NCBI GenBank assembly: GCA_002391225.1
Contig: DGRV01000021.1
Coordinates: 7,589-71,588, forward strand
Direction: 5' to 3'
Length of the DNA stretch: 64,000 nucleotides
From: Christensenella sp. UBA4379
GTDB lineage: Bacteria > Bacillota > Clostridia > Christensenellales > Aristaeellaceae
The position numbers and the translations under genes were made by a program. Positions 14,718-42,088 of this stretch are shown here, one piece after another (position 1 is the stretch's first letter; every line of letters starts with the position of its first letter). The notes beneath the pieces were generated by a model, which worked only from the letters and a program-made list of their open reading frames with translations, did no database searches and had not been told where the DNA came from.

Positions 14718-14740
14718 GCCTGTTTTATCAAAAATAGTTT

Positions 14741-14769
14741 TTGAACGCATCGGCAAAACCTGTTATAAT
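14741..14769 (+). promoter_or_regulatory. Sigma-A type promoter
   Basis: TTGAAC, 17-nt spacer, TATAAT. Confidence 0.55.
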
Positions 14770-14824
14770 CCCATCGAATGATCCCTCGCGTTTCAGCGAC
14801 CTATACCAGAAGGAGAGAAGATCA

Positions 14825-15622: not shown

Positions 15623-15709
15623 GGAACGGCTCGATGGAACCGTGAAAAACGGTTAGCATTTGCCCGGCCATAAAAATGACAAAATAAAAGACTGGAGTTG
15701 AATGAACGG

Positions 15710-16789: not shown

Positions 16790-16790
16790 A

Positions 16791-18989: not shown

Positions 18990-19028
18990 CGAATTTCCTC
19001 CTGCGTCCGTTTCGGCTCTGCAAAGGGA

Positions 19029-19955: not shown

Positions 19956-19973
19956 GGAAAAACCCCCTTTTTG

Positions 19974-22190: not shown

Positions 22191-22207
22191 CTCTTTTTCC
22201 TCCGGCT

Positions 22208-23440
22208 TCATGGATTGTGCGCAGGCCGCGTGCTGATGGACTTTCTGTATTCGTTGGGGGACAGGCCGTTGACCTTTTTGAAGATGCGGGCAAAGTAGTT
22301 GGCGTCGGCAAAGCCGCACTTTTCGGCGACGGCCTGCATGGAAAGGCCGGTCTTTCGGAGGGATTCCTCCGCCCTTTTGACGCGGACCTGGTTGATATAA
22401 TCCGTCAGCGTCACGCCTACCTCCCTGTGAAAGCGGGAGGAAAGATAGTTTTTATTGACCGCGAACCGCGTAGCCAGGCTTTCCAGGTTCAGCGGCTCCA
22501 TATAATGGAAATCAATGTAGTTCAGGCAGCTGCGCACGGGGCCTGAATACCTTTCCAGCGAGTGCTTCTGCACCAGCAGACAGTAGTGGCGGATCATGAT
22601 GGGGATCAGGGCCGTCAGCTGCTCCATCGTATCCGCCTTTTCAATTTCAATGATAAACTTTCCGCTGATGGCGTCGATAAACAGTGGATGGACGGCGGCC
22701 TGCTCGATGGCCTTGCGGTAGGCGGTGTTGACGGAGACGAGCATGTATTTGGCGTCCTGCAATGGGTCGTCGATCCGCCGGTCCAGCTGAAAACCCATGA
22801 ACAGGTTCTGCTGGTAAATGGCTTCGGAAAAATCCCCCCGGCGGATGGCTTCCAGCATGGCGTTTTCGACGGCATAGCGCGCCTCTACGGAGGTGTAGGG
22901 AATGGAGGACAGGGAAAGGGACGGCTTTTGTTTCACCGCTTCCGGGTGGTCGAAGGTGATTGCCTTGATGTCCAGGTCCGGGTTGGCCAGATAGCGGGAC
23001 AAAAGGCTTGAAAACATGTGCTGCCAGCCCAGATAATCCTGAATCACCGGGATGCGCTTAAAATACCAGCGGACCGCCTCGATGGAATCTTCGGGAAGGG
23101 AGTGCCGGCGGATCAGGCGCTCATAATCTTCCTCCCCGTAGGCGCGGTAGGTAAAGGGCCCGCAGAAGGCATAGACGCCCTCCTCTTCGCCGCGCCGCCT
23201 GAAGACCAGGTAATGAAGCCCGAAATCATCCTTGTAATCGACGGCGCCGTCCTCGGGCACCAGATCCATCATGGAGACGGCGAAGCGGACGTAATCAAAA
23301 TCCTCATACAGCCGGTCCCGAAAAAGAAAATCCAGCTCCGAAGCCTCCGGCCGCGAGCACTGCCGGGGCAAAGGCAGAAACTGCACCCGGTAAGCGCCCA
23401 GTATATCCCGGAAAATATCCCGTAAATCCATCATGACCAT
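22208..23440 (-). CDS. AraC-family transcriptional regulator
   Basis: C-terminal double HTH (LESLATRFAVNKNYLSSRF...AEKCGFADANYFARIFKK). Confidence 0.85.
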   Translation of the reverse strand: MVMMDLRDIFRDILGAYRVQFLPLPRQCSRPEASELDFLFRDRLYEDFDYVRFAVSMMDLVPEDGAVDYKDDFGLHYLVFRRRGEEEGVYAFCGPFTYRAYGEEDYERLIRRHSLPEDSIEAVRWYFKRIPVIQDYLGWQHMFSSLLSRYLANPDLDIKAITFDHPEAVKQKPSLSLSSIPYTSVEARYAVENAMLEAIRRGDFSEAIYQQNLFMGFQLDRRIDDPLQDAKYMLVSVNTAYRKAIEQAAVHPLFIDAISGKFIIEIEKADTMEQLTALIPIMIRHYCLLVQKHSLERYSGPVRSCLNYIDFHYMEPLNLESLATRFAVNKNYLSSRFHREVGVTLTDYINQVRVKRAEESLRKTGLSMQAVAEKCGFADANYFARIFKKVNGLSPNEYRKSISTRPAHNP

Positions 23441-23531: not shown

Positions 23532-23667
23532 CTATTATCGGTGAATTCCGTATGTGTTATCGGGGAATAAACTGTGATATATTGTACATGGCAAAAAGAT
23601 CAGCGTCTCCACGTTTCGTCAATGAACAACAATCCGGCGACTGAAAAAAAGAAACGAGTTGGTGCAG

Positions 23668-25172
23668 ATGGAAAAGGAAATCATTTTTGAAGCAAAGCAC
23701 ATGCGCAAGGAATTCGGCCCGACGGTTGCTTTGAAGGACGTGGATTTTACCCTCCGCAGGGGAGAAATCCGCGGTCTGGTGGGCGAAAACGGCTCGGGCA
23801 AATCCACCATCATGTCCATTGCTTCGGGTATGCAACCCGCTACCAAGGGCGAAATGTTTTACAAGGGCCAGCCCTGGAAGCCCAGCAACATGGTCGAGGC
23901 CCAGGACGCGGGCATTTCCATGATCCTGCAGGAGGCCAACACCATTCCCGGGGTCACGGTGGCGCAGAATATTTTTTCCGGCCACGAAGCGGAATTCTCC
24001 AAATTCGGCGTGATCAACATGCTGAAGATGAAGAAGGAAGCCCAGAAGGTGCTGGAAAGCTTCGGCATCGGCCACATCAAGGCCGGCGACCCGATTGACC
24101 AGTATACCTTTGAAGACAGGAAGCTCGTCGAGCTGGTGCGCTGCGTCACCGACAAGACCGAGATCCTGGTGGTGGACGAAACCACCACGGCCCTGTCGCT
24201 GGAAGGCCGCGAGATCCTGTATAAGCTGATCCACAAGATGGCGGACCAGGGTAAGGGCATCGTCTTTGTTTCCCACGATATGGACGAGATTCTGGAGCAG
24301 TGCACGGACCTGACGGTGCTGCGGGACGGCGACATTATCGGCCATCTGAACCGGCAGGAAATGGACGCGCCCGACGCTGTCAAAACCATCCGCTATATGA
24401 TGGTGGGCCGCGAGATCGGCGACAAGTATTACCGCGAGGATTACGATACCAGCCACTTGGACGAAGTGGCGCTGGAGCTCAGGGACGTCTCCCTGGGGAA
24501 GATCCGTCACTTTAACCTCAAGCTCCACAAGGGAGAAATCATCGGCATGGGCGGCCTTTCCGGCTGCGGGATGCACGACATCGGCCGCATCGCCTACGGG
24601 CTGGAAAAGCTCGAGGGCGGCCAGGTGCTCAGGAACGGCAAGGAGATCAAGACCCCCTGCAGGCCATCAACAGCGGCATCGGCTATATCTCCAAGAACCG
24701 CGATTCCGAGGCCCTGATCCTGAACGGCCCCATCCAGGACAACATCGTCCTTCCCTCCATCCCGGCGCTGGAGCATCATACCTTCATCAGCCCCCGGGCG
24801 GAAAAGAAGCTCAGCGACGTCGAAATCGGCAATTACCGCATCAAATGCCACGGCGGCAAGCAGTACGTGAACACCCTGTCCGGCGGCAATAAGCAGAAGG
24901 TTTCCTTCGGCAAGTGGACGGCCAAGGGCAGCGAGGTCATCATCATGGACTGCCCCACCCGCGGCGTGGACATCGGCGTCAAGCAGGCCATGTACACCCT
25001 GATTGAGGACATGAAGAAGGAAGGCCGCGCCATCCTGATGATCTCCGAGGAGCTCAGCGAGCTCATCGGCATGGCGGACCGGCTGATCATCATGAAGGAC
25101 TTTGAAGTGACCCACCAGGTGGAGCGCCATCCCGACCTCAAGCAGACCGACCTGATTGAGTACATGATTTAA
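23668..25172 (+). pseudogene. Sugar ABC transporter ATP-binding protein (two fused NBDs, RbsA/MglA type) interrupted by a frameshift
   Basis: NBD1 has GENGSGKST. The frame changes after ...NGKEIK at the C5 run 24653-24657. The other frame continues DPLQAINSGIGYISKNR...LSGGNKQKV... Confidence 0.8.
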
Positions 25173-25182
25173 GGAGGGCCCT

Positions 25183-26178
25183 ATGACTGCGATTGCACAA
25201 GAAAAAGAAAAGCAAAGCCTGCAGCAGTGGCTGAAAAAGCACGGCTCCTCCGTGGCCTCCGTCGGCGGTCTGCTGTTCTGCGTGATCTTCTTCACCATCA
25301 CCACCGGGCTCAAGGGCGAAAGCATCTGGAGCGCCAGCAAGCTGTCCACCCTGATCGGCGACGTCATCGTGACCGCCCTGATGGCCGTGGGCGCGGTGTT
25401 CATCTACTCCCTGGGCAACATGGACGTGAGCATCGGCAAGCAGGTGGGCCTGTACAGTACCCTGCTGGTCATCATCGGAAACGCCACCGGCTCCCTGCTG
25501 GTCGCGATCCTGGTCTGCCTGGTGATCGCTGTGGTTATCGGCATCGTCAACGGCTCGGCCGGAGAGCTGTTGCACATGTACTCGGTCATCTCGTCCGTCG
25601 TTTTCATGATGGTGCTTTCCGGCATCAGCACCATTATCTATTCCAACCTGGGCACCCGCAACATATCGATGAACCCCGGCATCGACCTGACGCTGTTTCG
25701 GCAGCCCTGGTTCATGGTGCTGGTGCTGGTCATCGAGACCGCGGTGATCGGCTATTTCTTCTACTTTACCAAGTTCGGCAAGTACGCCCGGGCCATCGGT
25801 GCTAACCAGACCGCCACCTCCCAGAGCGGGGTCAACATCATCCTGTACCGGGTCATTCCCTACATTTTCCTGGCGTTCTGTCTGGTGACGGCGTCCCTGT
25901 TCCAGATGGGCTATACGGGCGCCGCCAGCGACGCCACCGGCACCGGCTTTGAAATGAACGTGATGGTCTCCCTGATCCTGGGCGGCATGCCGCTAAAGGG
26001 CGGCATGAAGTCCCGCCTGTCCTGCGCCATCATCGGTTCTCTTACCTACTCCCTGCTGGCGGTGGGCCTGCCCATCATCGGCGTACCCACCCGGCTGACC
26101 TTCCTGATCAAGGCCGCCATCTTCCTGATCGTGGTGCTGATCACCTGCCGGCAGAAGAACGGCGTGCTGCCTCGGTAA
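25183..26178 (+). CDS. Sugar ABC transporter permease (RbsC/AraH type)
   Basis: Polytopic hydrophobic protein of 331 aa with the family-typical GANQTATSQSGVN loop. Confidence 0.85.
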   Translation: MTAIAQEKEKQSLQQWLKKHGSSVASVGGLLFCVIFFTITTGLKGESIWSASKLSTLIGDVIVTALMAVGAVFIYSLGNMDVSIGKQVGLYSTLLVIIGNATGSLLVAILVCLVIAVVIGIVNGSAGELLHMYSVISSVVFMMVLSGISTIIYSNLGTRNISMNPGIDLTLFRQPWFMVLVLVIETAVIGYFFYFTKFGKYARAIGANQTATSQSGVNIILYRVIPYIFLAFCLVTASLFQMGYTGAASDATGTGFEMNVMVSLILGGMPLKGGMKSRLSCAIIGSLTYSLLAVGLPIIGVPTRLTFLIKAAIFLIVVLITCRQKNGVLPR

Positions 26179-26241: not shown

Positions 26242-27426
26242 GTGAAGAAACTGATTGCTGTCGTTTTGTCTCTGGTCATGCTCCTGAGCATCGCCGTGCT
26301 GCCCGCATCCGCCGAAGGCAAGGGCAAGATCCTGTACCTGTCCAACCTGAACAGCGGCGCGCAGTACGAGTTCTATGTCGCCTACCTGAACATGATGGCC
26401 AAGGAACTGGGCTACACCGTTGAAATCGTCTACGGCGATACCTTCAACGACCCCGCCGGCAACTTAAAGAACGTCAAGAACGCCTACACCTCCGACGTGG
26501 TGGGCCTGATCTCCTGCATGGACGGCGGCCTGATCAACATCATGGAAGAATATCCGGACCTGTGGGTCGTCGGCTTCTTCTCTGACTTTGACGCCGTCTA
26601 CACCAAGGACGAAAGCGGCGCTTACACCGGCACCAGCGCGGCCGTGCTGGACAAGGATCACTACCTGGGCCTGATGGGCGATAACTACATCAGCGGCATC
26701 ACCCTGGGTGAAGCCTATGCCCAGGAAGTCATCGACCGCGGCTTCAAGCGCGTGGCCACCTGCATCTTCCCCGCCTACGCGTACCCGAAGCACACCGTGG
26801 CGGACGCCGGCTTCCGCGCCTACATCGCCAAGTACAACGAGACCGCCGCGGAACCCATCGAAGTGGTCGGCGACGCGACCGTGCTGAACTTCTCCCCCCT
26901 GGAAACCAACTACTTCTTTGAAGACGGCCACGACAATCTGGACTGCATCGTGGGCTTCTGCGCCGGCACCACCTTCGTTTATCCCACCGTGGTCGAAGCC
27001 AAGGCCATGGGCATCTGCCGCGAAGACATGCAGATCATCACCGGCGGCTTTGACAACGACCCCGACCTGATGGCCGACTGCGGCGACGACAAGAACATCA
27101 TCCGTCTGACCACCGCTGCCTTTGAAAGCATCATCTGGCCCATGGCCCTGATCGACGCCGCCATCTCCGGCCACATGTACAAGGACTACCCCGGCAACAA
27201 GTCCCAGCTGGATTCCGGCATCATGGTGATCAACAGCACCGAAAAGTTTGAGGCCGTTATCAACAATTCTCCCATGGGCGCCACCAACGACGCCGACCGT
27301 CTGGGCAAGGCCCAGGCCAGCTGGGAGGATATGAAGAACTACTTCACCAGCGTGAACCCCGACGCCAGCTACCAAGCCCTGACCGAATACTGCCAGAGCT
27401 TTGCGGTGGAAGGCTACATGAAGTAA
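26242..27426 (+). CDS. Sugar ABC transporter substrate-binding protein (type I PBP), secreted
   Basis: GTG start after GGAGGAAA. Signal peptide LSLVMLLSIAVLPASAEG. Confidence 0.8.
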   Translation: MKKLIAVVLSLVMLLSIAVLPASAEGKGKILYLSNLNSGAQYEFYVAYLNMMAKELGYTVEIVYGDTFNDPAGNLKNVKNAYTSDVVGLISCMDGGLINIMEEYPDLWVVGFFSDFDAVYTKDESGAYTGTSAAVLDKDHYLGLMGDNYISGITLGEAYAQEVIDRGFKRVATCIFPAYAYPKHTVADAGFRAYIAKYNETAAEPIEVVGDATVLNFSPLETNYFFEDGHDNLDCIVGFCAGTTFVYPTVVEAKAMGICREDMQIITGGFDNDPDLMADCGDDKNIIRLTTAAFESIIWPMALIDAAISGHMYKDYPGNKSQLDSGIMVINSTEKFEAVINNSPMGATNDADRLGKAQASWEDMKNYFTSVNPDASYQALTEYCQSFAVEGYMK

Positions 27427-27502: not shown

Positions 27503-28510
27503 ATGAAAAAAGCATTGAGCATTCTCAAGCGCGTCGCGGGGACGCTGATGCTGCCCGTGATCATGTTTGTGATCATGAAAATCCTGTGCAATGCCAATGG
27601 CAAGAAATTCCTGGAAAACATGGCCATGTGGAAGGTGCTGATTCCCCAGGTGGCCGTATCGGTGGCCTGCGCCATGGGCATCGGCCTCCAGTTCAAAAAC
27701 GGACGCTTTGACTTTTCCGGCGGCTCCATCATGCTGGTTTCGGCCATCGTGGCGGGCAGCATCGCCCGCGACTCTGGCACGGGCAGCCCGATGCTCTTCT
27801 GCGTCATCGCCGTGGGCATGTGCGTGCTGCTCAGCGTGGGCGTGGCCCTGGTCTATGTGTACGGCCGCCTGCCCATCATGATCGCCACCATCGGCATGGC
27901 CCTGCTGTACGAATCTGTCACCCCGCTGATTTTCGGCGGCGGCGGCGTGAACCTGGTCTCGGTCAAGTTCATCAAGCAGCTCTCCGCCTATCCCACGGTG
28001 CTGATTCCCTTTGCCTGTGCGGTAGCGGTATACGCCGTCTACAATTACGTCGCCACCACCGGCAAGCAGAGCGTGCTGCTGGCCAAAAACCAGCAGGCGG
28101 CCGTCAACATCGGCGTGAATGAAAACAAGAACGTCATCTTAAGCTATGTCTACAGCGGCCTGATCTTCGGCTTTGCCACCATCATCTGGGCCTCCCTGGG
28201 CAAGCGGGACGCCAGCTTCTCTTCCTTAAGCACGGTGGGCGAGCTGTTCTCCAACATCCTGCCCGTGTTTGTGGGCCTGTACATCGGCGCCTTCTGCGGG
28301 GACACCATCGGCATCATCATGGGCTCCCTGGCCATCTGCATGATGAAAACCGGACTTACGACCCTGTTTAAGGCCGAGCTGGGCGGCGCCATTTCCACCG
28401 CCATGATGGGCCTGTTCGTCTTCATCGTGAACCTGGTGGCTGGCCAGAGCGGCAACCTCAAAAAGCTGGCGGGCAAGCTCTTTGCCCGGCACGAGCCGGT
28501 CAAGGCATAA
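27503..28510 (+). CDS. Second sugar ABC transporter permease
   Basis: Polytopic hydrophobic protein of 335 aa with NQQAAVNIGVN loop. Confidence 0.85.
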   Translation: MKKALSILKRVAGTLMLPVIMFVIMKILCNANGKKFLENMAMWKVLIPQVAVSVACAMGIGLQFKNGRFDFSGGSIMLVSAIVAGSIARDSGTGSPMLFCVIAVGMCVLLSVGVALVYVYGRLPIMIATIGMALLYESVTPLIFGGGGVNLVSVKFIKQLSAYPTVLIPFACAVAVYAVYNYVATTGKQSVLLAKNQQAAVNIGVNENKNVILSYVYSGLIFGFATIIWASLGKRDASFSSLSTVGELFSNILPVFVGLYIGAFCGDTIGIIMGSLAICMMKTGLTTLFKAELGGAISTAMMGLFVFIVNLVAGQSGNLKKLAGKLFARHEPVKA

Positions 28511-28587: not shown

Positions 28588-31356
28588 ATGAAGATCACTG
28601 AACTCCGCGTCAATGGGATCCGGGAACCGCTGGGTTTTTCCCTGCCGCACCTCTCCATTTCCTGGAAGACGGTTGAAACCGCCTCCAAAAAGCCGGTTCG
28701 GGAGCGGCTCACGGTTGCCGCCGACCCTGATTTGAAGGAGGTCCTGTTTGAAAAGGATCAGGAACGCCTCTGCTCCATCGGGGAGGCCGTTGAGCTGCGG
28801 CTTTCTCCCCGCACCCGCTACTATGTGCGGGCCGAGGTCTGGGGAGACGATGGGGACCATGCCGCGGGCGATACCTGGTTTGAAACCGGCAAGATGGACG
28901 AGCCCTGGCAGGCAAAGTGGATCGGCCCTGAAGAAAAGGACGCCTTCCACCCGCTGTTTTTCCGCGCGTTCAACCTGCCAAAGGACGCCGTTTCCGCCCG
29001 GCTGTACGTGACGGGGCTGGGCCTCTATGAAGCGTATGTGAACGGGGAAAAGGCCGGGGACGACCTGCTGGCCCCTTTCCTGAGCGATTACAACGAATCG
29101 GTGCAGGCGCAGACCTATGACGTCAGCGCCCTGATCAAGGCCGGGGATAACCGCCTGGACATCATCACCGGCAACGGCTGGTACAAGGGCCGCCTGGGCT
29201 ACGAGGGCAGGCGGGAGGTATACGGGAAAGACTTTCAGGTGCTCGCGGAGCTCCGCGTTACCTTTGCGGACGGTTCCCAAGCGGTGATTGGCACGGACGA
29301 AAGCTGGCAGTACCAGGGCAGCGATTTTGAGTATACCGATATTTATGACGGCGAATGTCTGAACCGCCTTTTGTGGAAGGAGAAGGAAAACGTCCAAAAG
29401 CCTGTCCGCCTGATGCCGGAAAAAAAGACAGAGGACCGCTCGAGCCTGCCCGTCGTCGTCAAGGACAGCCTGCCCGTCCGGGACATCCTCCGCACCCCCG
29501 CCGGGGAAACGGTGCTGGACATGGGGCAGAACTTTACCGGGTATATGGAATATACCGCGGATTTCCCCGCCGGCACGCGCGTTACCCTGGACCACGGCGA
29601 AATCCTCCAGGGCGGCAATTTCTATAACGACAATTATCGCAGCGCCAGGGCGCAGATGATCTACGTGTCCGACGGGCGGAAGGAAAGGGTCCGGGCCCAC
29701 TTTACCTTTTTCGGCTTCCGCTATGTGCGGGTGACCGGCTGGCCCGGGGAAATCAGGAAGGAAGATTTTACAGGCCGGGTGGTCTATTCCGACCTGGATA
29801 CCTCCATCCGTTTCCACTCCTCCGACGAAAAGCTGAACCGGCTCTCGCAAAACGCCTTCTGGGGCCAGCGCAGCAATTTCCTGGACGTGCCCACCGACTG
29901 CCCCCAGCGGGACGAGCGCCTGGGCTGGACGGGGGACGCCCAGGTCTTTTCTCCGACGGCCTGCTTCCAGATGGACACGAGGGCCTTCTACAGAAAGTTC
30001 CTTTCGGACCTGAGGATCGACCAGCAGAAGCACGGCGGCGCGGTCGCCAATTACCTTCCCAACATCGGCGGCATGCCCGGCGGCAGCAGCGTATGGGGGG
30101 ACATCGCCACCTTCCTGCCTGCTACCCTCTATGAGTTCTACGGGGACAGGGAAGACCTGGAAGTACAGTACCCGATGATGAAGGACTGGCTTCACTGGAT
30201 CTTCCGCCAGGACGAGGAACACGGGGGAAGGAGACTCTGGGACTTCGGCTTCCACTTCGGCGACTGGCTGGCCCAGGACGGCGTCACGCCCCAGAGCATG
30301 AAGGGCGGGACCGACGACTTTTTCGTAGCCAGCATGTACTATTACGCCTCCGCCCTGAAAACCGCGCAGGCCGCGCGGATATTGGAAAAGCCTGAGGACG
30401 CGGAGGCCTTCGGACGTCTGGCTGAGGAGATCCGCGCCGCCATCCTGCGGGAATATTTCAGCCCCGCCGGCCGGCTATGCGTGGACACCCAGACGGCCTA
30501 CCTGCTGTGCCTGAACTTTTCTGTGTACGTGGACAGGGAGAGGCTGATCGAAGGGCTCAAAAAGCGCTTCCAGAAGGATTGCTACAAGATCAAGAGCGGC
30601 TTTGTGGGCGCGACCATGATGTGCCGGGTGCTGGCGGAAAACGGGCTGGAGGACATGGCGGCGTACTTCCTGTTCCAGGAGGGCTTCCCCGGATGGCTCC
30701 ACTGTGTGAACCTCGGGGCTACCACCATCTGGGAGCGGTGGAACAGCGTGCTGGACGACGGATCCATTTCCGGCACGGGCATGAATTCCCTGAACCACTA
30801 TTCCTACGGTTCCGTGATGGAATATGTGTTCCGCGACCTGGCGGGCATCCGGCCGCTGGCCCCGGGCTTTGGGCGGGTGCGCTTTGCTCCCCAGCCCAGC
30901 CGGTATCTGCAGGAGCTCAGCTGCGCCTACGATTCCGTCAGCGGCGAATACAGTTCTTTCTGGCGGATCAACGAGGACGGCGCGCTGACGGTGCGCTTCC
31001 GGGTGCCCTTTGGCTGCACGGCGGAGGCCCTGCTGCCGGGAAGCGGCGAAACAGTGGCCCTGACCGCGGGCGAATATGAAAAGACCTATCGGCCCAGCGC
31101 AGACTACGGCCAGCGCTATACGATGGACAGCCGCCTGGACGAAATGAAGGATGATGAAGAGGCTCTGGCCCTCCTCCAGGAGGACATGCCCCCGGCCTAT
31201 GAGGCGGTCCTCAAAAACGATATAGAGCTCATGAGCCTGCCGTTTACCGAACTGCAAAATCTCTTCTTCTTCGGCTTTAACCCCGGCATGATGCAGGCCG
31301 GCACCCGGCGTCTGTTTACCCTGAGAGCATTTTCAAGGAGGAAATCCCATGATTGA
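28588..31356 (+). CDS. GH78 alpha-L-rhamnosidase, no signal peptide
   Basis: DCPQRDERLGWTGDAQVF motif. The 922-aa architecture is typical of the family. Confidence 0.9.
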   Translation: MKITELRVNGIREPLGFSLPHLSISWKTVETASKKPVRERLTVAADPDLKEVLFEKDQERLCSIGEAVELRLSPRTRYYVRAEVWGDDGDHAAGDTWFETGKMDEPWQAKWIGPEEKDAFHPLFFRAFNLPKDAVSARLYVTGLGLYEAYVNGEKAGDDLLAPFLSDYNESVQAQTYDVSALIKAGDNRLDIITGNGWYKGRLGYEGRREVYGKDFQVLAELRVTFADGSQAVIGTDESWQYQGSDFEYTDIYDGECLNRLLWKEKENVQKPVRLMPEKKTEDRSSLPVVVKDSLPVRDILRTPAGETVLDMGQNFTGYMEYTADFPAGTRVTLDHGEILQGGNFYNDNYRSARAQMIYVSDGRKERVRAHFTFFGFRYVRVTGWPGEIRKEDFTGRVVYSDLDTSIRFHSSDEKLNRLSQNAFWGQRSNFLDVPTDCPQRDERLGWTGDAQVFSPTACFQMDTRAFYRKFLSDLRIDQQKHGGAVANYLPNIGGMPGGSSVWGDIATFLPATLYEFYGDREDLEVQYPMMKDWLHWIFRQDEEHGGRRLWDFGFHFGDWLAQDGVTPQSMKGGTDDFFVASMYYYASALKTAQAARILEKPEDAEAFGRLAEEIRAAILREYFSPAGRLCVDTQTAYLLCLNFSVYVDRERLIEGLKKRFQKDCYKIKSGFVGATMMCRVLAENGLEDMAAYFLFQEGFPGWLHCVNLGATTIWERWNSVLDDGSISGTGMNSLNHYSYGSVMEYVFRDLAGIRPLAPGFGRVRFAPQPSRYLQELSCAYDSVSGEYSSFWRINEDGALTVRFRVPFGCTAEALLPGSGETVALTAGEYEKTYRPSADYGQRYTMDSRLDEMKDDEEALALLQEDMPPAYEAVLKNDIELMSLPFTELQNLFFFGFNPGMMQAGTRRLFTLRAFSRRKSHD

Positions 31357-33049
31357 TTTAAAGGCCAATCCTTTTTTCTTAAATGACCAGGACATCGCCT
31401 GGGTGGAAAAGACCAAAGCCGCCATGAGCACCGAGGAAAAGCTGGAGCAGCTGTTTTTCCCCATCGGCTATTCCGCCAACGAGGGCTATCTTCAGTATGA
31501 GCTGCTGAACCGCCGTCCCGGCGGCGTCATGTTCCGCACCGGCAAAACCGAGGAGCTGTTCAGCGCCTATACCTATCTGCAGACCCACACCAAGGTCCCC
31601 CTGTTCCTGGCGGCCAACTTGGAAGCGGGCGGCGACGGCATCGTGGAGGAAGGGACCGCCTTCGGCAAGCAGATGCAGGCGGCAGCCACCGGCGACCCGG
31701 AACAGGCCTACCGCCTGGGCAAAATTTCCTGCGCGGAGGGCCAGGCCGTGGGCTGCAACTACGCCTTCGCCCCGGTGGTGGACATTGACCTCAATTACCA
31801 TAACCCCATCACCAACGTGCGCACCTATGGCAGCGACAAGGACATGGTCAAGGCCTGCGGCCTGGCCTATATGAAGGGCGCGAAGGAGTGCGGCAGCGCC
31901 GTTTCCATCAAGCACTTCCCCGGCGACGGCGTGGACGAAACGGACCAGCACATCCTGACCAGCGTCAATTCCCTTTCCTGTGAGGAGTGGGACGAAAGCT
32001 ACGGCGACATCTATAAAACCCTCATCGAAAACGGCGCCCTGACCGTAATGGTGGGCCACATCGCCATGCCCGCCTATCAGAAAAAGTTTAACCCTGCCCA
32101 TCCCGACAAGCTGATGCCGGCCACGCTGTCCCCGGAGCTTTTACAGAACCTGCTCCGCGGCCAGCTGGGCTTTAACGGCATGATCATCACCGACGCCAGC
32201 CCCATGGTGGGCTTCCTGTGCGCCATGGACCGGCGGCGGAGCGTGCCCTACTGCATCGAAGCCGGCTGCGACATGATCCTATTCAACAAGGATTATGAAG
32301 AGGACCTGGGCTACATGAAGCAGGGCTACGAGGACGGTATTCTGTCCGAAAAGCGGCTGGACGAGGCCGTCACCCGGATTCTGGCCGCGAAAGCCGCCCT
32401 GCGGCTCCATGAAAAGCAGGAAAACGGCGCCCTGGCCCCGAAGAAAGAAAACCTCTCCGTCATCGGCTGCGAGCAGCACCGGGCCTGGGCCAGGGAATGT
32501 GCCGACAAGGCCGTCACCCTGGTAAAGGACACCCAGCATCTTCTCCCCATCGACCATAAGCGCCATCACCGGGTGCTGTTTGAGATCCTGGGCAAATGCC
32601 CTTCCGAACAGCGGGTGGCCCAGCGCTTCATCGCCGATATGGAAAAAGAGGGCTTCCAAATGATCCCCTACCAGGAAGAGGTCTTCGATTTTTCCAAGCC
32701 CATGCACATGGAAACCGTGGAGGAGTTCCGCAGCAAGTACGACCTGGTTATCTACATCGGCAACGTGGAAAACGCCTCCAACAAGACCACCGCTCGCCTC
32801 AACTGGCACGCCCCCTACGGTGCGGGCAACAACATCCCCTGGTTCGTGGAGGTAGTGCCCACCCTGTTCATCTCCCTGCAGAACCCCTATCACCTGCTGG
32901 ATGTGCCGATGGTGAAGACCTATATCAACGCCTATTCCAACCACGACCTCATGATCGACACGGTGGTGGAAAAGCTGGTGGGAAAGAGCGCGTTTACCGG
33001 CCATAGCCCCGTGGACCCCTTCTGCGGCAAGGAATACCTGCGATATTGA
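31349..33049 (+). CDS. GH3 enzyme of the NagZ-like (Asp-His dyad) type
   Basis: KHFPGDGVDETDQH, and the nucleophile region GFNGMIITDA. Overlaps the GH78 stop by 8 nt. Confidence 0.85.
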   Translation: MIDLKANPFFLNDQDIAWVEKTKAAMSTEEKLEQLFFPIGYSANEGYLQYELLNRRPGGVMFRTGKTEELFSAYTYLQTHTKVPLFLAANLEAGGDGIVEEGTAFGKQMQAAATGDPEQAYRLGKISCAEGQAVGCNYAFAPVVDIDLNYHNPITNVRTYGSDKDMVKACGLAYMKGAKECGSAVSIKHFPGDGVDETDQHILTSVNSLSCEEWDESYGDIYKTLIENGALTVMVGHIAMPAYQKKFNPAHPDKLMPATLSPELLQNLLRGQLGFNGMIITDASPMVGFLCAMDRRRSVPYCIEAGCDMILFNKDYEEDLGYMKQGYEDGILSEKRLDEAVTRILAAKAALRLHEKQENGALAPKKENLSVIGCEQHRAWARECADKAVTLVKDTQHLLPIDHKRHHRVLFEILGKCPSEQRVAQRFIADMEKEGFQMIPYQEEVFDFSKPMHMETVEEFRSKYDLVIYIGNVENASNKTTARLNWHAPYGAGNNIPWFVEVVPTLFISLQNPYHLLDVPMVKTYINAYSNHDLMIDTVVEKLVGKSAFTGHSPVDPFCGKEYLRY

Positions 33050-33059
33050 TACTAATCTC

Positions 33060-33198
33060 TGGTAAAACTGCTAAATCTTGCACGCATCTTTGACGCTTGC
33101 TCTGCGTCACCCACCCTCACCGTACCTTCAGGTACGCTTTCGTGCGGGTTCCTTGATCAAACGCCAAATCCACGCACAATCTTTTAGCATTTTTACCA
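33060..33198 (+). repeat. About 140-nt structured intergenic element closed by a 16-bp inverted repeat
   Basis: TGGTAAAACTGCTAAA pairs with TTTAGCATTTTTACCA (15 of 16). Inner hairpins are GACGC-ttgctct-GCGTC and CGTACC-ttca-GGTACG. Confidence 0.5.
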
Positions 33199-33223
33199 CA
33201 TCTTAGTATAAGGAGGAAGAACC

Positions 33224-33868
33224 ATGCAATTTCAAGCCATCATCTTTGACCTGGACGGCGTGATCTGCTTTACCGACGAATACCATTACCGCGCCTGGAA
33301 GGCCATGGCGGACGATATGGGCATCCCCTTTGACCGGACGGTCAACAACCGTCTTCGCGGCGTCAGCCGCATGGCCAGCCTGGACATCATTTTGGAAAAA
33401 TACACAGGGCCCGCTTTGAGCCAGGAAGAAAAGGAAAAGCTGGCCCAGCGGAAAAACGACATCTACCGGGAGTCCCTTCAGGAAATGAGCCCTGCCGACC
33501 TGAGCGCGGAGGTAAAGGAGACCCTGGAGGGCCTCCGGGACCTGGGCCTCAAACTGGCCATCGGCTCCTCCTCCAAGAACACCCCCTTCATCCTGGGCCA
33601 GATCGGCCTCAAGGATTTCTTTGACGCCGTCAGCGACGGCAACAACATCACCCGCTCCAAGCCCGACCCGGAGGTTTTTGTCAAGGCGGCGCAGATGCTG
33701 GGCATCGCCCCGGAAGCCTGCCTGGTGGTGGAGGACGCCGTGTCCGGCGCTCAGGCCGGCCACGCGGGCGGCATGAAGGTGGCCTGCCTGGGCGACGCCG
33801 CGATGAATCAGGCCGGCGACTGGAACATGCAGAGCATCCGGGAACTGTTGGACATTGTCAAAGAGTAA
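33224..33868 (+). CDS. pgmB: Beta-phosphoglucomutase (HAD superfamily)
   Basis: IIFDLDGVI, NRLRGVSR, GSSSKN and VVEDAVSG motifs. Confidence 0.85.
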   Translation: MQFQAIIFDLDGVICFTDEYHYRAWKAMADDMGIPFDRTVNNRLRGVSRMASLDIILEKYTGPALSQEEKEKLAQRKNDIYRESLQEMSPADLSAEVKETLEGLRDLGLKLAIGSSSKNTPFILGQIGLKDFFDAVSDGNNITRSKPDPEVFVKAAQMLGIAPEACLVVEDAVSGAQAGHAGGMKVACLGDAAMNQAGDWNMQSIRELLDIVKE

Positions 33869-33880
33869 GGAGCATAGGAA

Positions 33881-35629
33881 ATGGTCGATCTGAAAGCGAA
33901 GCCCTTTTTCCTGACCGACGAAGAGATCCGTTGGGTGGAGGAGACGCTGGCCTCCATGACCCTCCGGGAAAAGCTGAGCCAGCTGTTCGTGATGCTTAAA
34001 GCGGTGCCCGGGGTCGACGAGGGCCAGATCAAAAGCCTGATGGAAAGCGCCCGCCCCGGCGGCATGCGCTGGCAGGGGGGCGACAAGGAAAGCGTCTGGA
34101 AGCAGAACCGCCTGTTCCAGCAGTACAGCCGGATTCCCGTGTTCATCGCTGGCAACTGCGACGACGGCGGCAACGGCGTTCTGCCCAAGGAGGGAACCTT
34201 CGTGGCGACGGCGGCCGAGGCCGGGGCCGGGGCAGGCACGGAAACCGCCTACCATATGGGCTACGCGGCGGGAAAGGAAGCGGCGGCCATCGGCGTCAAC
34301 TGGATGTTCAACCCCGTGGCGGACGTATATAAAAACTGGCGCAACACCATCGTGAACACCCGCTCCTTCGGCAGCGACCCGGACCGGGTCATCGCCTGCG
34401 TGCGGGCTTACATCCGGGGTATCAAGGACGCCGCCCCGCACATGGCCTGCACCTGCAAGCACTTTCCCGGCGACGGCTGGGACGAGCTGGACCCCCATAT
34501 TTCCCCCGCCCACAACGAAGCGGGCGCGGAGGAATGGCTGGAAAGCTACGGAAAAGTCTATCAGACGATGATTGACGAGGGCCTTGAAACCATCATGACC
34601 GGCCAGATTTCCCTGCCCCAGATGAGCCGGCGCCTGCACCCCGGCATCCGGAATGAGGAGATTCTGCCCGCTTCCCTGGCCCCGGAGCTTTTGCAGGACC
34701 TGCTCCGGGAGCAGATGGGCTTTAACGGCCTGATCATCTCCGACGCCTCCCACATGATCGGCATGTCCGGCGTGATGGCGAGAAGCGAAGCTGTGCCCCG
34801 GTGCATCGCCGCGGGCTGCGACATGTTCCTGTTTGCCAATGATTTTGAGGAGGACCTTCATTATCTGGAGGAAGGTTATCAGCGCGGCATTGTGACCGAG
34901 CAGCGGCTCCGCGACGCCCTTTTGCGCATCCTTGGGATGAAGGCCCATCTAAAGCTGTACGACGACGCCGTCCGCTATCCCGACCAAGCCGGACTGGACG
35001 TGATCGGCTGTCAGGCGCACCAGGAGTTTACCGTCCAGGCCGCCGATGCCTGCGTCACCCTGGTCAAGGATACAAGGAATCTCCTCCCCATCGACCCTGC
35101 AAATAAGAAAAACGCCCTGCTCATCTATGTGCAGAGCCCCCCGAACAGCAAGGCCTACCAGGGCGACGGGATGCGGGCCCTGATCACCGAGGAGCTGGAG
35201 CGGGCCGGCTTCTCCGTCACCCAGTGCCCCAGCTTCTACGACCTGGAAGTCGAAAACGGCCCCCATCCGATGAACTTCGTCAGAATGATGCAGATGGGCC
35301 GCCGGGAGGATTTTAAGAAGAAATACGACGTGGTATTCGTGTTCATCTACGTGAAGGGCTATGCCCAGCGCAACGTGGAGCGCCTTTCCTGGAGCAGCGG
35401 CCACAGCATGGAAATGCCCTGGTATACCGAGGAAGTGCCCACCGTGGGCGTGAGCCTCAACTATACCAATCACCTGGTGGACTGCGCCAATATTCACACC
35501 TTTGTCAACGCCTACGGCCCGAACCGGGAAAACGTGCGGGCGGCTATTGAGAAGATCACCGGGAAAAGCCCCTTCCGCGGCACGGCAGACGATACCGTCT
35601 TCTGCGGCCGCTGGGATACCCGCCTGTAA
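33881..35629 (+). CDS. GH3 enzyme of the NagZ-like (Asp-His dyad) type, paralog of 31349..33049
   Basis: KHFPGDGWDELDPH and GFNGLIISDA. The N-terminus MVDLKAKPFFLTDEEIRWVEE parallels MIDLKANPFFLNDQDIAWVEK. Confidence 0.85.
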   Translation: MVDLKAKPFFLTDEEIRWVEETLASMTLREKLSQLFVMLKAVPGVDEGQIKSLMESARPGGMRWQGGDKESVWKQNRLFQQYSRIPVFIAGNCDDGGNGVLPKEGTFVATAAEAGAGAGTETAYHMGYAAGKEAAAIGVNWMFNPVADVYKNWRNTIVNTRSFGSDPDRVIACVRAYIRGIKDAAPHMACTCKHFPGDGWDELDPHISPAHNEAGAEEWLESYGKVYQTMIDEGLETIMTGQISLPQMSRRLHPGIRNEEILPASLAPELLQDLLREQMGFNGLIISDASHMIGMSGVMARSEAVPRCIAAGCDMFLFANDFEEDLHYLEEGYQRGIVTEQRLRDALLRILGMKAHLKLYDDAVRYPDQAGLDVIGCQAHQEFTVQAADACVTLVKDTRNLLPIDPANKKNALLIYVQSPPNSKAYQGDGMRALITEELERAGFSVTQCPSFYDLEVENGPHPMNFVRMMQMGRREDFKKKYDVVFVFIYVKGYAQRNVERLSWSSGHSMEMPWYTEEVPTVGVSLNYTNHLVDCANIHTFVNAYGPNRENVRAAIEKITGKSPFRGTADDTVFCGRWDTRL

Positions 35630-35641: not shown

Positions 35642-36652
35642 ATGAAAACGGAATACATCGTCCTGAATCCGGAAAGAAACGTCAGCCTGACCGCCTTCCT
35701 GCAGCCCGTGGGCGGAGAGTTTTCCGGCCTGGCCGCCCGGCCCGCGGCGCTGATTCTGCCCGGCGGCGGCTATCACTTCTGCTCCGACAGGGAGGCAGAC
35801 CCGGTGGCCTTCCCGTACTTAAAAGCGGGCTATCAGGTCTTCATCCTGCGCTATTCTTTGAACGAACAGGCAGAGTGGCCCAACCCCCTCAATGACTACG
35901 AGCAGGCCATGGCCCTGATCGAAAAGAACGCGGAAGCCTGGCATGTGGCTGTCGACCGCATCGCGGTGATCGGCTTTTCCGCCGGCGGCCATCTGGCGGC
36001 CTGCGCGGCTACCATGGCCCGGCGCCGGCCCGCCGCGGCTATCTTGGGCTATCCCGTGATCGACGGGGACTGCGCGCGCGATTACCTGCCCTCCGCCCCG
36101 GACGTCCCTTCCGCGGTGGATCAGCGCACCTGCCCCTGCTTTGTCTTCGCCACCCGCACGGACAACCTGGTGCCGGTGCACAACGCCGTCCATCTGATCG
36201 ACGCCCTGTGCGAAAATGACATCGCCTTTGAGAGCCACATCTATGCAAACGGCCCCCACGGCCTGTCCACCGGAGACGCAAGCATCAACGGGCAGGACTT
36301 TTCCGCCCGCTACTGCGCCTGGGTGGGGGACAGCATCGCCTGGCTTTCCGACGTGCTGGGCGGCGTCACCGCCCAGGGCCTGACCCCGCCGCGCTTCGGC
36401 AGCAGAATCAACGGCAACCGGGAAAAAACGCTGAACCTGGACTGCACGCTTCAATACCTGCTGTCCCATCCCAAAGGCAGGGCCTTGCTGGAGGAAATCC
36501 TGCCCTCCGAGCCCGGGAAGCCGAGCTACCCCCCAGCCGCAGCCAGCGTCATCACCCTGAGGGACAGCCTGCGCTACAGCGGCCTTTCCGCTGAAGCGAT
36601 CCAGTCGATCGAAAACCGGCTGCTGGCCATCGACAACCATCCGGAGGATTGA
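35642..36652 (+). CDS. Alpha/beta hydrolase (carbohydrate esterase-like)
   Basis: PGGGYHF oxyanion region and the GFSAGGH nucleophile elbow. Confidence 0.8.
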   Translation: MKTEYIVLNPERNVSLTAFLQPVGGEFSGLAARPAALILPGGGYHFCSDREADPVAFPYLKAGYQVFILRYSLNEQAEWPNPLNDYEQAMALIEKNAEAWHVAVDRIAVIGFSAGGHLAACAATMARRRPAAAILGYPVIDGDCARDYLPSAPDVPSAVDQRTCPCFVFATRTDNLVPVHNAVHLIDALCENDIAFESHIYANGPHGLSTGDASINGQDFSARYCAWVGDSIAWLSDVLGGVTAQGLTPPRFGSRINGNREKTLNLDCTLQYLLSHPKGRALLEEILPSEPGKPSYPPAAASVITLRDSLRYSGLSAEAIQSIENRLLAIDNHPED

Positions 36653-36655: not shown

Positions 36656-37486
36656 ATGTCTTACCTGGACGAATTCAAGCGGAAACAGCGCTTCGCCGTC
36701 TGCGTGGACTCCGACGGCTGCGCCATGGACACCATGAACATCAAGCACATCCGCTGCTTCGGCCCCTGCATGGTGGAGGAATGGGGCCTGGCGAAATGGC
36801 GGGACGCCATCCTGAACCGCTGGAACGAAATCAACCTCTATTCCGGCACCCGGGGTATCAACCGCTTTAAGGGCCTGGCCATGGCCCTGTCCGAAATTCA
36901 TGAGAAATATACGCCCATCGACGGCATTGATCTCCTCACCGCCTGGGCGGAGACCGCCCCCGAGCTTTCCAACGACGCCGTGGCCTTGAAAGCCCAGGAG
37001 CATCCGGTCTTTGAAAAGGCCCTTCGCTGGAGCCGGGCGGTGAACGCGGCCATCGAAGCCCTGCCAGAGGAGAAAGTCAAGCCCTTTGCCCACGTAGGGG
37101 AAGCCCTGGCCGCCGCCCACCGGCAGGCCGACGTGGTGGTGGTCTCCAGCGCCAACCCGGAGGCTGTGCGGGAGGAATGGAAGCGCTTTGCCCTCCTTCC
37201 CCATGTGGACCTGCTCTGCACCCAGGAAATGGGCAGCAAGGCCTACTGCATCGGCAAGCTGAAGGAAAAGGGGTACGATGCCATTCTGATGTGCGGCGAC
37301 GCCCCGGGGGACGAGCAGGCGGCCAGGAAAAACCAGGCCCTGTATTATCCCATTCTGGTCAATCACGAGGCCGAAAGCTGGCAGCGCTTCCTGGACGAGG
37401 CGCTGGACAGGTTCCTCCAAAACGAATTCGCGGGCAGCTATCAGCAGGACCTCCTCGACGCGTTTCACAAAAATCTGGGCCAGTGA
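36656..37486 (+). CDS. HAD-family hydrolase (putative sugar phosphatase)
   Basis: CVDSDGCAMDT (DxD motif) and a C-terminal GDAPGD. Confidence 0.7.
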   Translation: MSYLDEFKRKQRFAVCVDSDGCAMDTMNIKHIRCFGPCMVEEWGLAKWRDAILNRWNEINLYSGTRGINRFKGLAMALSEIHEKYTPIDGIDLLTAWAETAPELSNDAVALKAQEHPVFEKALRWSRAVNAAIEALPEEKVKPFAHVGEALAAAHRQADVVVVSSANPEAVREEWKRFALLPHVDLLCTQEMGSKAYCIGKLKEKGYDAILMCGDAPGDEQAARKNQALYYPILVNHEAESWQRFLDEALDRFLQNEFAGSYQQDLLDAFHKNLGQ

Positions 37487-37493: not shown

Positions 37494-39098
37494 ATGACTT
37501 TGGAATTTCATATCAACAGCACCCTTCCGCGCATCCCGCATAAAAAGCACTGGCAGTTCTGCGTAGGCTCCGCTCACGCCCAGATGGCCCTGCGCACGGA
37601 CTATACGCGGCAGCTGACCTTCATCCACGACACCCTGGGCATTGAGCGGGTACGCTTCCACGGGATTTTCTGCGACGATATGCGCACGCTGAACGACCTG
37701 TCCGTGCAGCTGAACGTGCCCGGGGCGGATCAGTTCACCGAATACAATTTCAACTTCTGCGGCGCCGCCTACGACAACGTGCTGGCCGCCGGCATGAAGC
37801 CGCTGGTGGAGCTGTCCTTCATGCCCGAAAAGCTGGCGCTCAAGGAAGAAGGAAGGCCCGTAAAAGGCGGCTTTTTCTACAAGCCCAACATCGTGCCGCC
37901 CAGGGACTATGCCGCCTGGCGGGACTATCTGCAGGCCTTCGTCCGCTTCCTGCTCCACCGGTACGGGAAGGAAGAAGTCCGCACCTGGTATTTTGAGGTA
38001 TGGAACGAGCCGGACCTGCCCTATGTGTTCTGGAACGGCAGCAGGGACGAGTATTTCCGCCTGTACGAGGAATCCGCCCGGGCCATCAAAGATGTGGACG
38101 AAAAAATCATGGTGGGCGGCCCTTCCACCAGCGGCAGCAAATGGATCAGCAGTTTCGTGGCCTATTGCAGGAAAAACGATGTTCCCCTGGACTTCGTCAC
38201 CACCCACCAGTACGCCGGGGATCCCCTGGGCGGCGTGGAAGACCAGGGCGACGCGGAGGGCCAGGCAGGCGGCTTTGAAGCCTGGCAGGAGCGTCTGCGC
38301 AAGGCAGAGGAAACCCTCCGGCAGGTAAAGGAAAAGACCTTCCTGGCGGGCTACCGCGCCGTCACGCCCGACAAATCGGAGACCACCGAGATCCCGGACG
38401 ACCTGTTCCGCAAAAACGCTGCCCGCGCCCACGAGCAGGCCCAGGGCCTGCCCCTGTATTACACTGAATGGAACGAAAACGCCATCTTCTCCGCCTACAC
38501 CAACGACACCCGCAAGGTGGCCGCCTACGACGTGAAAATGGCCCTGGCCGTGGCCGACCATGTCACCGGCTCCTCCATCTGGTGCTTCAGCGACATCTTT
38601 GAGGAGCTCCATCCCTTCCCGCAGGAATTCCACGGCGGCTTTGGGATGCTGACCCAGCACGGCATCCCCAAGCCCGTCTATTACGCCATGAAGCTGCTGG
38701 CCGACGCCCCGGATACGCGCATCGACCTGGGTGCGGACGCCTTTGACGGCGAAATCGGCGCCGCCGCCTTTGAAGGAAACGGGGAAACCCACGTGATCCT
38801 TTTCCGCCAGAAGATGAAGCAGCTGGACCTGCCCAAGGAAGAAGCCGTAATTCGCTTGGCCTGCCCCGAAAAGCCCCAAAGCGTAACCGTCAGGCGCATC
38901 GACGAAGCCCACGGCAATCCCCTGAAGCTGTGGGAAGAAATGGGCAGTCCTGAAACCATGAGCCCTAAAGAAGCGGAAGAACTGAAAGCAAAGAGCGCCG
39001 TCCAGCCCGAGCCCTGGCCCTTCACCTGGGAAAATGGAGAATTGACCCTCCGCGCCGAACTGGGCGTCAACGACGTATATGGATTTGTAATCAGATAA
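37494..39098 (+). CDS. GH39 beta-xylosidase-like glycosidase
   Basis: YFEVWNEPD, TTHQY and YYTEWN motifs. AAAGGAGA SD. Confidence 0.85.
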   Translation: MTLEFHINSTLPRIPHKKHWQFCVGSAHAQMALRTDYTRQLTFIHDTLGIERVRFHGIFCDDMRTLNDLSVQLNVPGADQFTEYNFNFCGAAYDNVLAAGMKPLVELSFMPEKLALKEEGRPVKGGFFYKPNIVPPRDYAAWRDYLQAFVRFLLHRYGKEEVRTWYFEVWNEPDLPYVFWNGSRDEYFRLYEESARAIKDVDEKIMVGGPSTSGSKWISSFVAYCRKNDVPLDFVTTHQYAGDPLGGVEDQGDAEGQAGGFEAWQERLRKAEETLRQVKEKTFLAGYRAVTPDKSETTEIPDDLFRKNAARAHEQAQGLPLYYTEWNENAIFSAYTNDTRKVAAYDVKMALAVADHVTGSSIWCFSDIFEELHPFPQEFHGGFGMLTQHGIPKPVYYAMKLLADAPDTRIDLGADAFDGEIGAAAFEGNGETHVILFRQKMKQLDLPKEEAVIRLACPEKPQSVTVRRIDEAHGNPLKLWEEMGSPETMSPKEAEELKAKSAVQPEPWPFTWENGELTLRAELGVNDVYGFVIR

Positions 39099-39127: not shown

Positions 39128-39161
39128 CGAAAAGGCCAGGGATGGAATGTCCCTGGTCTTT
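39128..39161. terminator. Bidirectional intrinsic terminator between convergent operons
   Basis: CCAGGGA / TCCCTGG stem with an A-run before and a T-run after. Confidence 0.75.
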
Positions 39162-39187: not shown

Positions 39188-39808
39188 TCACTTTCTCCCG
39201 GTCACCGTGTAGATCATGCCCTTGATCTGCCGGGAGTCTGTGACGGTGAAGCCGGTGTTGGTCATCAGCTTTTCGATGCCCTGGCGGTTGGTGGTGCGGC
39301 AGTCGCCGCTCCGCGCCAGCTTAAAAAGGATGTGGTTGTCGATCCACGCGCCGAGGCCGCCGATGCCGGTGTCGGAGAGGATGTACAGGCCGCCGGGCTT
39401 CAATACGCGTTTTGCCTCCAGCATCGCCTGTTCCGGGTAGGGGTAGTGGTGGAAGCTCTGGGAACAGGTGACGATGTCGAAGCTCTCGTCCGGGTAAGGC
39501 AGATGATCGGCGGAGCCCACTGTGAACGATGCGCCGGGGATCGCCTTTTCCTGCGCTACGTGGATCATCTCGTCCGACAGGTCCAGGCCAAAGTACCGGG
39601 CCGCTTTCTGCCTGGTGAGGAGATCAATCAGGAAACCTGTTCCACAGCCGACGTCGAGCAGGGATTCATAGGGAAGAGCCCTTATCTGTTCCGCGATGTC
39701 CCGGCAGCTGATCTTCCCGTTCTGCGAATAGTAATAGGTGTCGCGCTGGTCATACTCGGCGGCCTGACCGTCGAAATGCTTTTTGGATAAGGCTTCGTAG
39801 TCTTTCAT
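39188..39808 (-). CDS. Class I SAM-dependent methyltransferase
   Basis: LLDVGCGTGF motif I and VLKPGGLYI. Confidence 0.85.
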   Translation of the reverse strand: MKDYEALSKKHFDGQAAEYDQRDTYYYSQNGKISCRDIAEQIRALPYESLLDVGCGTGFLIDLLTRQKAARYFGLDLSDEMIHVAQEKAIPGASFTVGSADHLPYPDESFDIVTCSQSFHHYPYPEQAMLEAKRVLKPGGLYILSDTGIGGLGAWIDNHILFKLARSGDCRTTNRQGIEKLMTNTGFTVTDSRQIKGMIYTVTGRK

Positions 39809-39896
39809 GTTGGTTTTCTTCCTTTTCTTGCAATCACCGGGGTTCGCGGCTTTAAGGAATGGCGGCCGCAGGAGGCCTCCGAAAAGCCCGATGATT

Positions 39897-41179: not shown

Positions 41180-41185
41180 AGGATC

Positions 41186-41926: not shown

Positions 41927-42088
41927 CAGATGTTGCTCCTCGTTGACCAAATGTGAATTAGTTAAATCTAACGTAATCCTAAAAAAGAAAGCCCGCCGCA
42001 CAGCCATCCGCTGCGGATTCCTGCCTGACAGGATGTTAGTTACCGCTTACTATTATACCTCACACGGACTTGTTTTTCAAGGCTTTTA

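Follow-up and report, generated by a model that had tools for sequence, protein, structure and literature searches.

What supplies beta-glucose 1-phosphate to a beta-phosphoglucomutase that has no classical phosphorylase encoded beside it? The question is raised by a gene cluster of Christensenella sp. UBA4379, found in a stretch of 64,000 nucleotides of contig DGRV01000021.1 (hereafter the window). Here pgmB, the gene for a beta-phosphoglucomutase (33224..33868, + strand, 214 aa), lies between two genes for proteins of glycoside hydrolase family 3 (GH3), which we call GH3-A (31349..33049, +, 566 aa) and GH3-B (33881..35629, +, 582 aa). The original prediction, a model's reading of the DNA, had described this sandwich and proposed that the GH3 enzymes release beta-glucose 1-phosphate from beta-glucosides for PgmB to pass into glycolysis. 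All three open reading frames (ORFs) are where it placed them, on the + strand and within one tightly packed operon. Judging from the enzyme family, active-site residues and synteny observed here, from which phosphorolysis and the substrate are predicted, the cluster is probably a cytoplasmic, energy-saving phosphorolytic route for beta-glucosides.

Both proteins match the GH3 family PF00933 (193.9 bits, E = 6e-57, for GH3-A and 187.8 bits, E = 5e-55, for GH3-B; gathering cut-off 27). The closest solved structures are the same for both, PDB 5VQD/5VQE, annotated as 'beta-glucoside phosphorylase'. 5VQD aligns with residues 5-560 of GH3-A (E = 6e-138) and with residues 4-582 of GH3-B (E = 5e-106), and these alignments span the C-terminal domain of each GH3, a domain unmatched by the Pfam GH3_C model. 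The structures are those of BglP (reference sequence GenBank AUG44408.1), a metagenomic retaining GH3 beta-glucoside phosphorylase (Macdonald et al. 2018, J Biol Chem 293:3451) that is listed in a 2022 review together with its recorded aryl glucoside substrates (PMC8950772, Table 1). According to the same review, two GH3 phosphorylases have been characterised. Global identity to BglP is 44% for GH3-A and 37% for GH3-B, and the two paralogues are 41% identical to each other.

The dyad motifs of the two proteins read exactly as first quoted. GH3-A carries KHFPGDGVDETDQH (residues 188-201, nucleotides 31910..31951, +), in which Asp199 and His201 form the dyad with Gln200 between them, and GH3-B carries KHFPGDGWDELDPH (residues 193-206, nucleotides 34457..34498, +), with Asp204 and His206 on either side of Pro205. 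The predicted nucleophile of GH3-A is Asp282 (GFNGMIITD, 32192..32194, +), which aligns with Asp288 of BglP; that of GH3-B, also from the alignment, is Asp288 (GFNGLIISD, 34742..34744, +). The column of BglP Asp288 is kept in 99% of the clade. By comparison, the BglX-type GH3 of the window (16791-18989) has KHFAGYG and lacks D-x-H, as had been stated.

Phylogeny places both proteins with the proven phosphorylase. A neighbour-joining tree of 89 sequences with 100 bootstraps took in NagZ-type proteins, YbbD and the BglX-type GH3 of the window, with Nag3 left out; in 96 of the 100 replicates BglP, GH3-A and GH3-B form a clade apart from all of these. The fold points in the same direction: an AlphaFold model of GH3-B (predicted TM score, pTM, 0.88) has 5VQE/5VQD as its top matches (TM 0.87-0.92), with YbbD at 0.72-0.76.

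The label 'NagZ-type' under which both genes were first described is inexact. Membership in NagZ (NF003740) was rejected, given scores of 106.5 and 115 bits against an equivalog cut-off of 207 and a motif that differs: compared with KHFPGHG...D[ST]H of NagZ, the window proteins have Asp in place of His, and Gln or Pro in place of Ser/Thr. The signature of the BglP clade is KHFPGDG...DQH, whereas that of NagZ-type proteins is KHFPGHG...DSH. We surveyed the clade at E<=1e-30, which gave 1768 representatives of clusters at 50% identity, and read the motifs in the best 150, mostly full-length matches. Of the 121 motif-bearing sequences among these 150, 104 have D-Q-H, eight D-H-H, five D-P-H and one D-A-H, and KHFPGHG...D-S-H occurs in three NagZ-type multidomain proteins. 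At 50% identity the BglP clade itself falls into well over 100 clusters. Six residues set it apart from NagZ-type proteins (D198, D201, R203, N212, W219 and G224 in BglP numbering), and both GH3-A and GH3-B retain five of them, D198, D201, N212, W219 and G224. GH3-A and GH3-B belong to the BglP family of beta-glucoside phosphorylases. Nag3 of Cellulomonas fimi had been offered as the precedent; the idea of a GH3 phosphorylase stands, and the decisive precedent is BglP rather than Nag3 alone. With Nag3 and the NagZ/YbbD-type enzymes the window proteins share the GH3 fold, the Asp-His dyad on a mobile loop and the KHFPG motif, but NagZ-type enzymes act on N-acetylglucosamine (GlcNAc), and the window GH3s fall outside their group.

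The gene between the two GH3s is a genuine member of its family as well. PgmB scores 225.9 bits against TIGR01990 (bPGM, cut-off 189.4), it is nearest to the beta-phosphoglucomutase of Lactococcus lactis (1LVH, E = 8e-45), and the alignment with 1LVH shows the catalytic motifs DxD (FDLDG), SKP and ED retained. Conservation of its linkage to GH3 was scanned in one genome per GTDB species, at 80 loci (numbered with the prefix L) with a GH3 that shares 51-90% identity with GH3-A; 44 of them are fully flanked, having 8 kb or more of sequence on each side. Within 10 kb of the GH3, 49 of the 80 loci and 33 of the 44 that are fully flanked hold a pgmB homologue, so the predicted co-occurrence proved strongly conserved. 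The two genes directly adjoin in 33 loci and share a strand in 48 of 49, and 54 of 55 pgmB neighbours score about the TIGR01990 cut-off or more. In a genome of a few megabases there are one or two pgmB genes, and we estimate the chance of finding one in a random 20-kb stretch at about 1%. The order GH3-A, pgmB, GH3-B recurs in the GTDB species L003, L004, L006, L007 and L022 (Gemmiger formicilis An812) and on contigs L098-L102.

The same arrangement is found at bglP itself. A JGI contig encodes BglP at 100% identity, with permease genes of a CUT1-type ATP-binding cassette (ABC) importer on its 5' side and a beta-phosphoglucomutase-family gene directly 3' (188.9 bits against TIGR01990, cut-off 189.4, and 176 against TIGR02009, cut-off 153). 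Gut relatives 64% identical to BglP have the order ABC importer, GH3, ROK, pgmB. Given that the linkage is conserved both in loci of the GH3-A type and at bglP, the pairing of GH3 with pgmB is a general property of the entire BglP clade.

Classical sources of beta-glucose 1-phosphate are, as first reported, missing from the neighbourhood. We found no GH65 or GH94 among all window ORFs of at least 600 aa, which encode the GH78, a Pel9A-like beta-helix protein, a GH36, the BglX-type GH3 and a GH2; beyond 40 kb the window has no ORF longer than 550 aa. Across the 49 pgmB-bearing loci, GH65 accounts for one of the 56 large unassigned ORFs, in a single locus. Two relatives have variant arrangements. 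In a Lachnospiraceae metagenome-assembled genome (L026:11529-13664), a 712-aa ORF has an N-terminal beta-phosphoglucomutase domain followed by GH78 domains and, if the assembly is correct, is a gene fusion joining both functions. In L105 (2778-4772), a GH65 gene, called in two pieces, follows GH3-A at the position usually held by pgmB. The GH3 and the GH65 of L105 could be coupled, because both enzymes, the one retaining and the other inverting, handle beta-glucose 1-phosphate.

In the pathway that we propose, the ABC importer would take up a small glycoside, from which the GH78 enzyme would strip the outer rhamnose, while the GH39 enzyme may strip xylose and the esterase may strip acyl groups. 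GH3-A would then form a glucosyl-enzyme intermediate on Asp282, and the Asp199/His201 dyad would let phosphate, and not water, attack it, with beta-glucose 1-phosphate as the product. PgmB would convert this to glucose 6-phosphate, so that each glucose costs one ATP less. GH3-B probably carries out the same chemistry on a different substrate. The operon enzymes are predicted to be cytoplasmic because, among the operon products, a signal-like N-terminus is found on the binding protein of the importer and on none of the enzymes. The step from GH3 through beta-glucose 1-phosphate to PgmB, as it was originally put forward, is very probably right in view of BglP homology, conserved residues and pgmB synteny. 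Given that BglP is already a glucoside-specific GH3 phosphorylase, the pathway is of a known kind, and the cluster adds an example to an enzyme class already described, not a new mechanism. What may be new is the recurrence of a cluster of ABC importer, GH78, GH3 and pgmB, which hints at natural substrates, and the old paralogue GH3-B, with Asp-Pro-His for Asp-Gln-His, in the company of the HAD-family protein described below as HADx.

Several observations weigh against a phosphorolytic role. The expected Asp-His dyad and the nucleophilic Asp are present in both proteins, but the dyad loop of GH3-B (201-208) has a predicted local distance difference test (pLDDT) score below 50 in the AlphaFold model, so that the modelled geometry of the dyad is of low confidence. 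The glutamine in the middle of the dyad, whose position we infer from D-Q-H against D-S-H, is what we take to determine the preference of BglP for glucose over GlcNAc; GH3-A has Gln200 at this position, whereas GH3-B carries Pro205. Arg203 of BglP is kept by 92% of the clade, but GH3-A has Thr at this position and GH3-B has Leu, and a search for a residue compensating for the absent Arg gave no clean candidate, showing basic residues enriched at positions in the C-terminal domain. In about a quarter of the fully flanked loci pgmB is missing from the vicinity of the GH3, and the ATPase gene of the importer is frameshifted in this assembly.

The missing Arg would suit a rival view, in which the two GH3 enzymes hydrolyse glycosides in the ordinary way (as beta-glucosidases or hexosaminidases) and pgmB serves another role, for example with a GH65 encoded elsewhere. 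By itself the dyad is no proof of phosphorylase activity: GH3 N-acetylglucosaminidases are hydrolases according to Franceus et al. 2021, as summarised in PMC10913872, so that GH3s with a His/Asp dyad can be plain hydrolases. The same summary reports that three further active-site positions recognise phosphate, and activity could be weakened if Arg203, the clade-conserved residue absent from both paralogues, were among them. The relative L105 has GH65 adjoining GH3-A and no pgmB in the stretch shown. We nevertheless consider simple hydrolysis very unlikely, given that the nearest characterised relative is a phosphorylase and that adjacency to pgmB is kept across 51-90% identity and at bglP, almost always without GH65. 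The loss of Arg203 does not appear to loosen this link either, since the subclade without Arg has pgmB about as often (in 15 of 27 loci, compared with 33 of 52).

If the route is phosphorolytic, its substrates may be judged from the neighbouring enzymes. A GH78 gene is found together with the GH3 at 24 of the 44 fully flanked loci. The window GH78, a predicted alpha-L-rhamnosidase (28588..31356, +) with five GH78 Pfam domains and no signal peptide, has its best PDB matches in 3W5M, 6GSZ and 6I60, rhamnosidases from Streptomyces, Aspergillus terreus and Dictyoglomus. These rhamnosidases act on flavonoid rhamnoglucosides. The last gene of the operon encodes a GH39 beta-xylosidase-like protein (37494..39098, +; Pfam GH39, E = 1e-91), nearest in the PDB to the beta-xylosidases 6YYH, 2BS9 and 1PX8. 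Downstream of GH3-B lies a gene for an alpha/beta-hydrolase esterase of BD-FAE or arylesterase-like type (35642..36652, +; Pfam BD-FAE), which matches the NCBIfam lp_1002 arylesterase model at 140 bits, below its cut-off, and PDB 4Q3K at E = 1e-56. Given the linkage to GH78, the fusion of pgmB to GH78 domains and the relatives of the GH39, GH78 and esterase, we favour as the probable substrates diglycosides of plant phenolics with rhamnose or xylose as the outer sugar on glucose, of which rutinosides, neohesperidosides and primeverosides are examples. The outer sugar would come off first, and phosphorolysis would then act on the inner aryl beta-glucoside, in keeping with the aryl glucosides listed as substrates of BglP (PMC8950772). 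Literature searches for a cluster of GH3, pgmB and GH78, or for phosphorolysis of flavonoid glucosides, returned nothing relevant.

It is quite possible, though we think it less probable, that the enzymes are phosphorolytic and act not on a flavonoid rutinoside but on an oligosaccharide of glucose and rhamnose (for example Glc-beta-1,4-Rha from bacterial or plant polysaccharides) or on beta-glucan oligosaccharides. The bglP locus and the gut relatives at 64% identity have ABC importers and pgmB with no GH78, a deep gene of the GH3-B type (L103) adjoins GH35/42 and PF10091 genes, and a sulfatase is also encoded in L104. Polysaccharide enzymes (GH2, GH36, BglX and the Pel9A-like protein) abound near the cluster too. 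Plant phenolic glycosides are preferred here given that the esterase resembles arylesterases and feruloyl esterases, that the nearest solved relatives of the GH78 are the Streptomyces, Aspergillus and Dictyoglomus rhamnosidases, and that activity on aryl glucosides is on record for BglP (PMC8950772).

GH3-B deserves separate consideration. Its lineage splits from GH3-A and BglP in 100 of 100 bootstraps, and a recent tandem duplication of the two window genes was rejected in view of their 41% identity and separate old lineages. D-P-H is found in 116 of 120 GH3-B homologues, down to 67% identity, and deeper members of the GH3-B type have D-Q-H. Two genes downstream is HADx (36656..37486, +), predicted to be a HAD-IA (C1-cap) phosphotransferase and the partner of GH3-B. 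It has a weak Pfam HAD_2 match and the complete DxD...GDxxxD motif set, with DSDG and GDAPGD invariant, and it returned no match in NCBIfam or among PDB sequences. Its AlphaFold model (pLDDT 85) matches HAD-IA phosphatases and beta-phosphoglucomutase with TM scores of about 0.45-0.5, a generic level of similarity. HADx stands next to GH3-B, on one side of it or the other, in L002, L003, L007, L022, L043, L047, L052, L104 and L105; in L004 and L100-L102 an esterase gene stands between the two, and L004 ends within HADx. The sole case of a HADx-like gene without GH3-B, L057, is a weak one (167 bits). The suggestion that this HAD protein serves as a proofreading phosphatase gained no support; the gene co-varies specifically with GH3-B. 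Among these loci, L104 has a cluster with GH3-B and HADx and without GH3-A, in which a sulfatase gene (12383-13990) lies between GH78 and pgmB.

This pairing of GH3-B with HADx parallels that of GH3-A with pgmB, and GH3-B might not be redundant with GH3-A at all, but form with HADx a second module, one that would handle another glycoside or another beta-sugar 1-phosphate. The age of the lineage, the Asp-Pro-His kept in nearly all close homologues and the occurrence of HADx beside GH3-B in either order, in several Clostridia lineages and almost never without it, argue for such a module. We think it rather doubtful, given that the deeper GH3-B-type sequences still have D-Q-H, that the remaining catalytic and clade residues match BglP, and that the similarity of HADx is to HAD-IA proteins in general. 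In its most specific form, a second phosphorylase module in which a GH3 of new specificity yields a product handled by a new HAD-family mutase or phosphatase, the proposal is unlikely. Such a module could make some beta-sugar 1-phosphate that is not beta-glucose 1-phosphate, or its product could derive from a glucoside bearing substituents or acyl groups.

The operon runs in one direction, in the order CUT2-type ABC sugar importer, GH78, GH3-A, pgmB, GH3-B, esterase, HADx and GH39. The importer ATPase gene (23659..25172, +) is split by the frameshift into ORFs of 352 and 101 aa, and inspection of the sequence shows the reading frame switching near 24650-24720. The split is also called in an independent ENA contig, L098, and intact homologues of 502-503 aa are found in L094 and L104; the split is either a pseudogene or an assembly error common to both contigs. 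Two permease genes with BPD_transp_2 family matches (25183..26178 and 27503..28510, both +) flank the gene for the solute-binding protein (26242..27426, +), which is predicted to be secreted from its signal-like N-terminus, keeps its position in relatives and had no match in Pfam or among PDB sequences. An ABC permease 5' of the GH3 is kept in 32 of the 44 fully flanked loci. In L100-L102 the position of GH39 is taken by a GH42-like gene.

From GH78 to GH39 the gaps between genes are -8 to 12 nt, beginning with an overlap of 8 nt between the 3' end of GH78 and the start of GH3-A. The sole exception is a 174-nt spacer between GH3-A and pgmB (33050..33223, +). Its terminal repeats, imperfect and inverted, lie at 33059-33075 and 33183-33199, and it folds better than shuffled sequence (z-score -3.8). 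It has no Rfam match, a second copy was not found in the window, and the corresponding gap in L100-L102 is 12 nt; the spacer may be a small inserted palindromic element. Downstream, a terminator-like hairpin (39136..39156, listed on the - strand) separates the operon from a convergent methyltransferase gene. Promoter and terminator scans of the window were at background level, and Rfam gave no matches across its whole length.

Divergent from the operon is a gene for an AraC-family regulator (22208..23440, -; Pfam HTH_18 and HTH_AraC), a position equally occupied by such a gene in L098 and L104. Upstream of the importer in L016 (2384-4888, -) is an 835-aa protein that combines an AraC-type cupin and helix-turn-helix regulator with a GH39-like domain, and similar ORFs occur in about 20 other loci; proteins of this type may be regulators with an enzyme-derived sensor domain. 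Directly past the operon (39188-42007, -), the gene calls of L098 show two tandem copies of a gene pair, one gene for a SAM methyltransferase and the other for a DUF6796 membrane protein. On the other side (5319-22319) are genes for the Pel9A-like beta-helix protein (1142 aa), a GH36 melibiase, the BglX-type GH3, a nucleoside-hydrolase-like protein and a GH2, and therefore the window sits in a broad glycan-utilisation region.

Compared with BglP, the window proteins share a two-domain architecture of about 565 aa, the nucleophilic Asp, five of the six clade residues and, in GH3-A, the KHFPGDG...D-Q-H motif; like BglP they are predicted to be cytoplasmic, with an ABC importer upstream and an adjoining beta-phosphoglucomutase gene. 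They differ in overall identity (44% for GH3-A and 37% for GH3-B), in the replacement of Arg203 by Thr or Leu and, in GH3-B, in Pro for Gln205. The importer here is of the CUT2 type, whereas that at bglP is of the CUT1 type, and GH78, esterase, HADx and GH39 are linked to the GH3s in the window and absent at bglP. A second comparison is with pathways in which GH65 enzymes (maltose, trehalose, kojibiose and nigerose phosphorylases) release beta-glucose 1-phosphate and PgmB converts it to glucose 6-phosphate (PMC11442529). The proposed route would share both steps, but GH65 enzymes invert alpha-glucosides, whereas a retaining GH3 would act here on beta-glucosides in a window with no GH65.

To our knowledge, the physiological substrate and role of BglP have not been established. 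The present analysis does not overturn current understanding; its value lies in the physiological context that it provides and in the lead offered by GH3-B and HADx. It is also a pointer to new biocatalysts producing beta-glucose 1-phosphate or glucosides. The BglP clade is large and almost always wired to a beta-phosphoglucomutase, often together with GH78 and an importer in gut and rumen Clostridia, and carriers in culture include Gemmiger formicilis An812, Butyrivibrio sp. NC2007, Pseudobutyrivibrio sp. ACV-2 and Bacillus coreaensis. This suggests a testable physiological role for the clade, in which anaerobes would save ATP through the phosphorolysis of plant glucosides.

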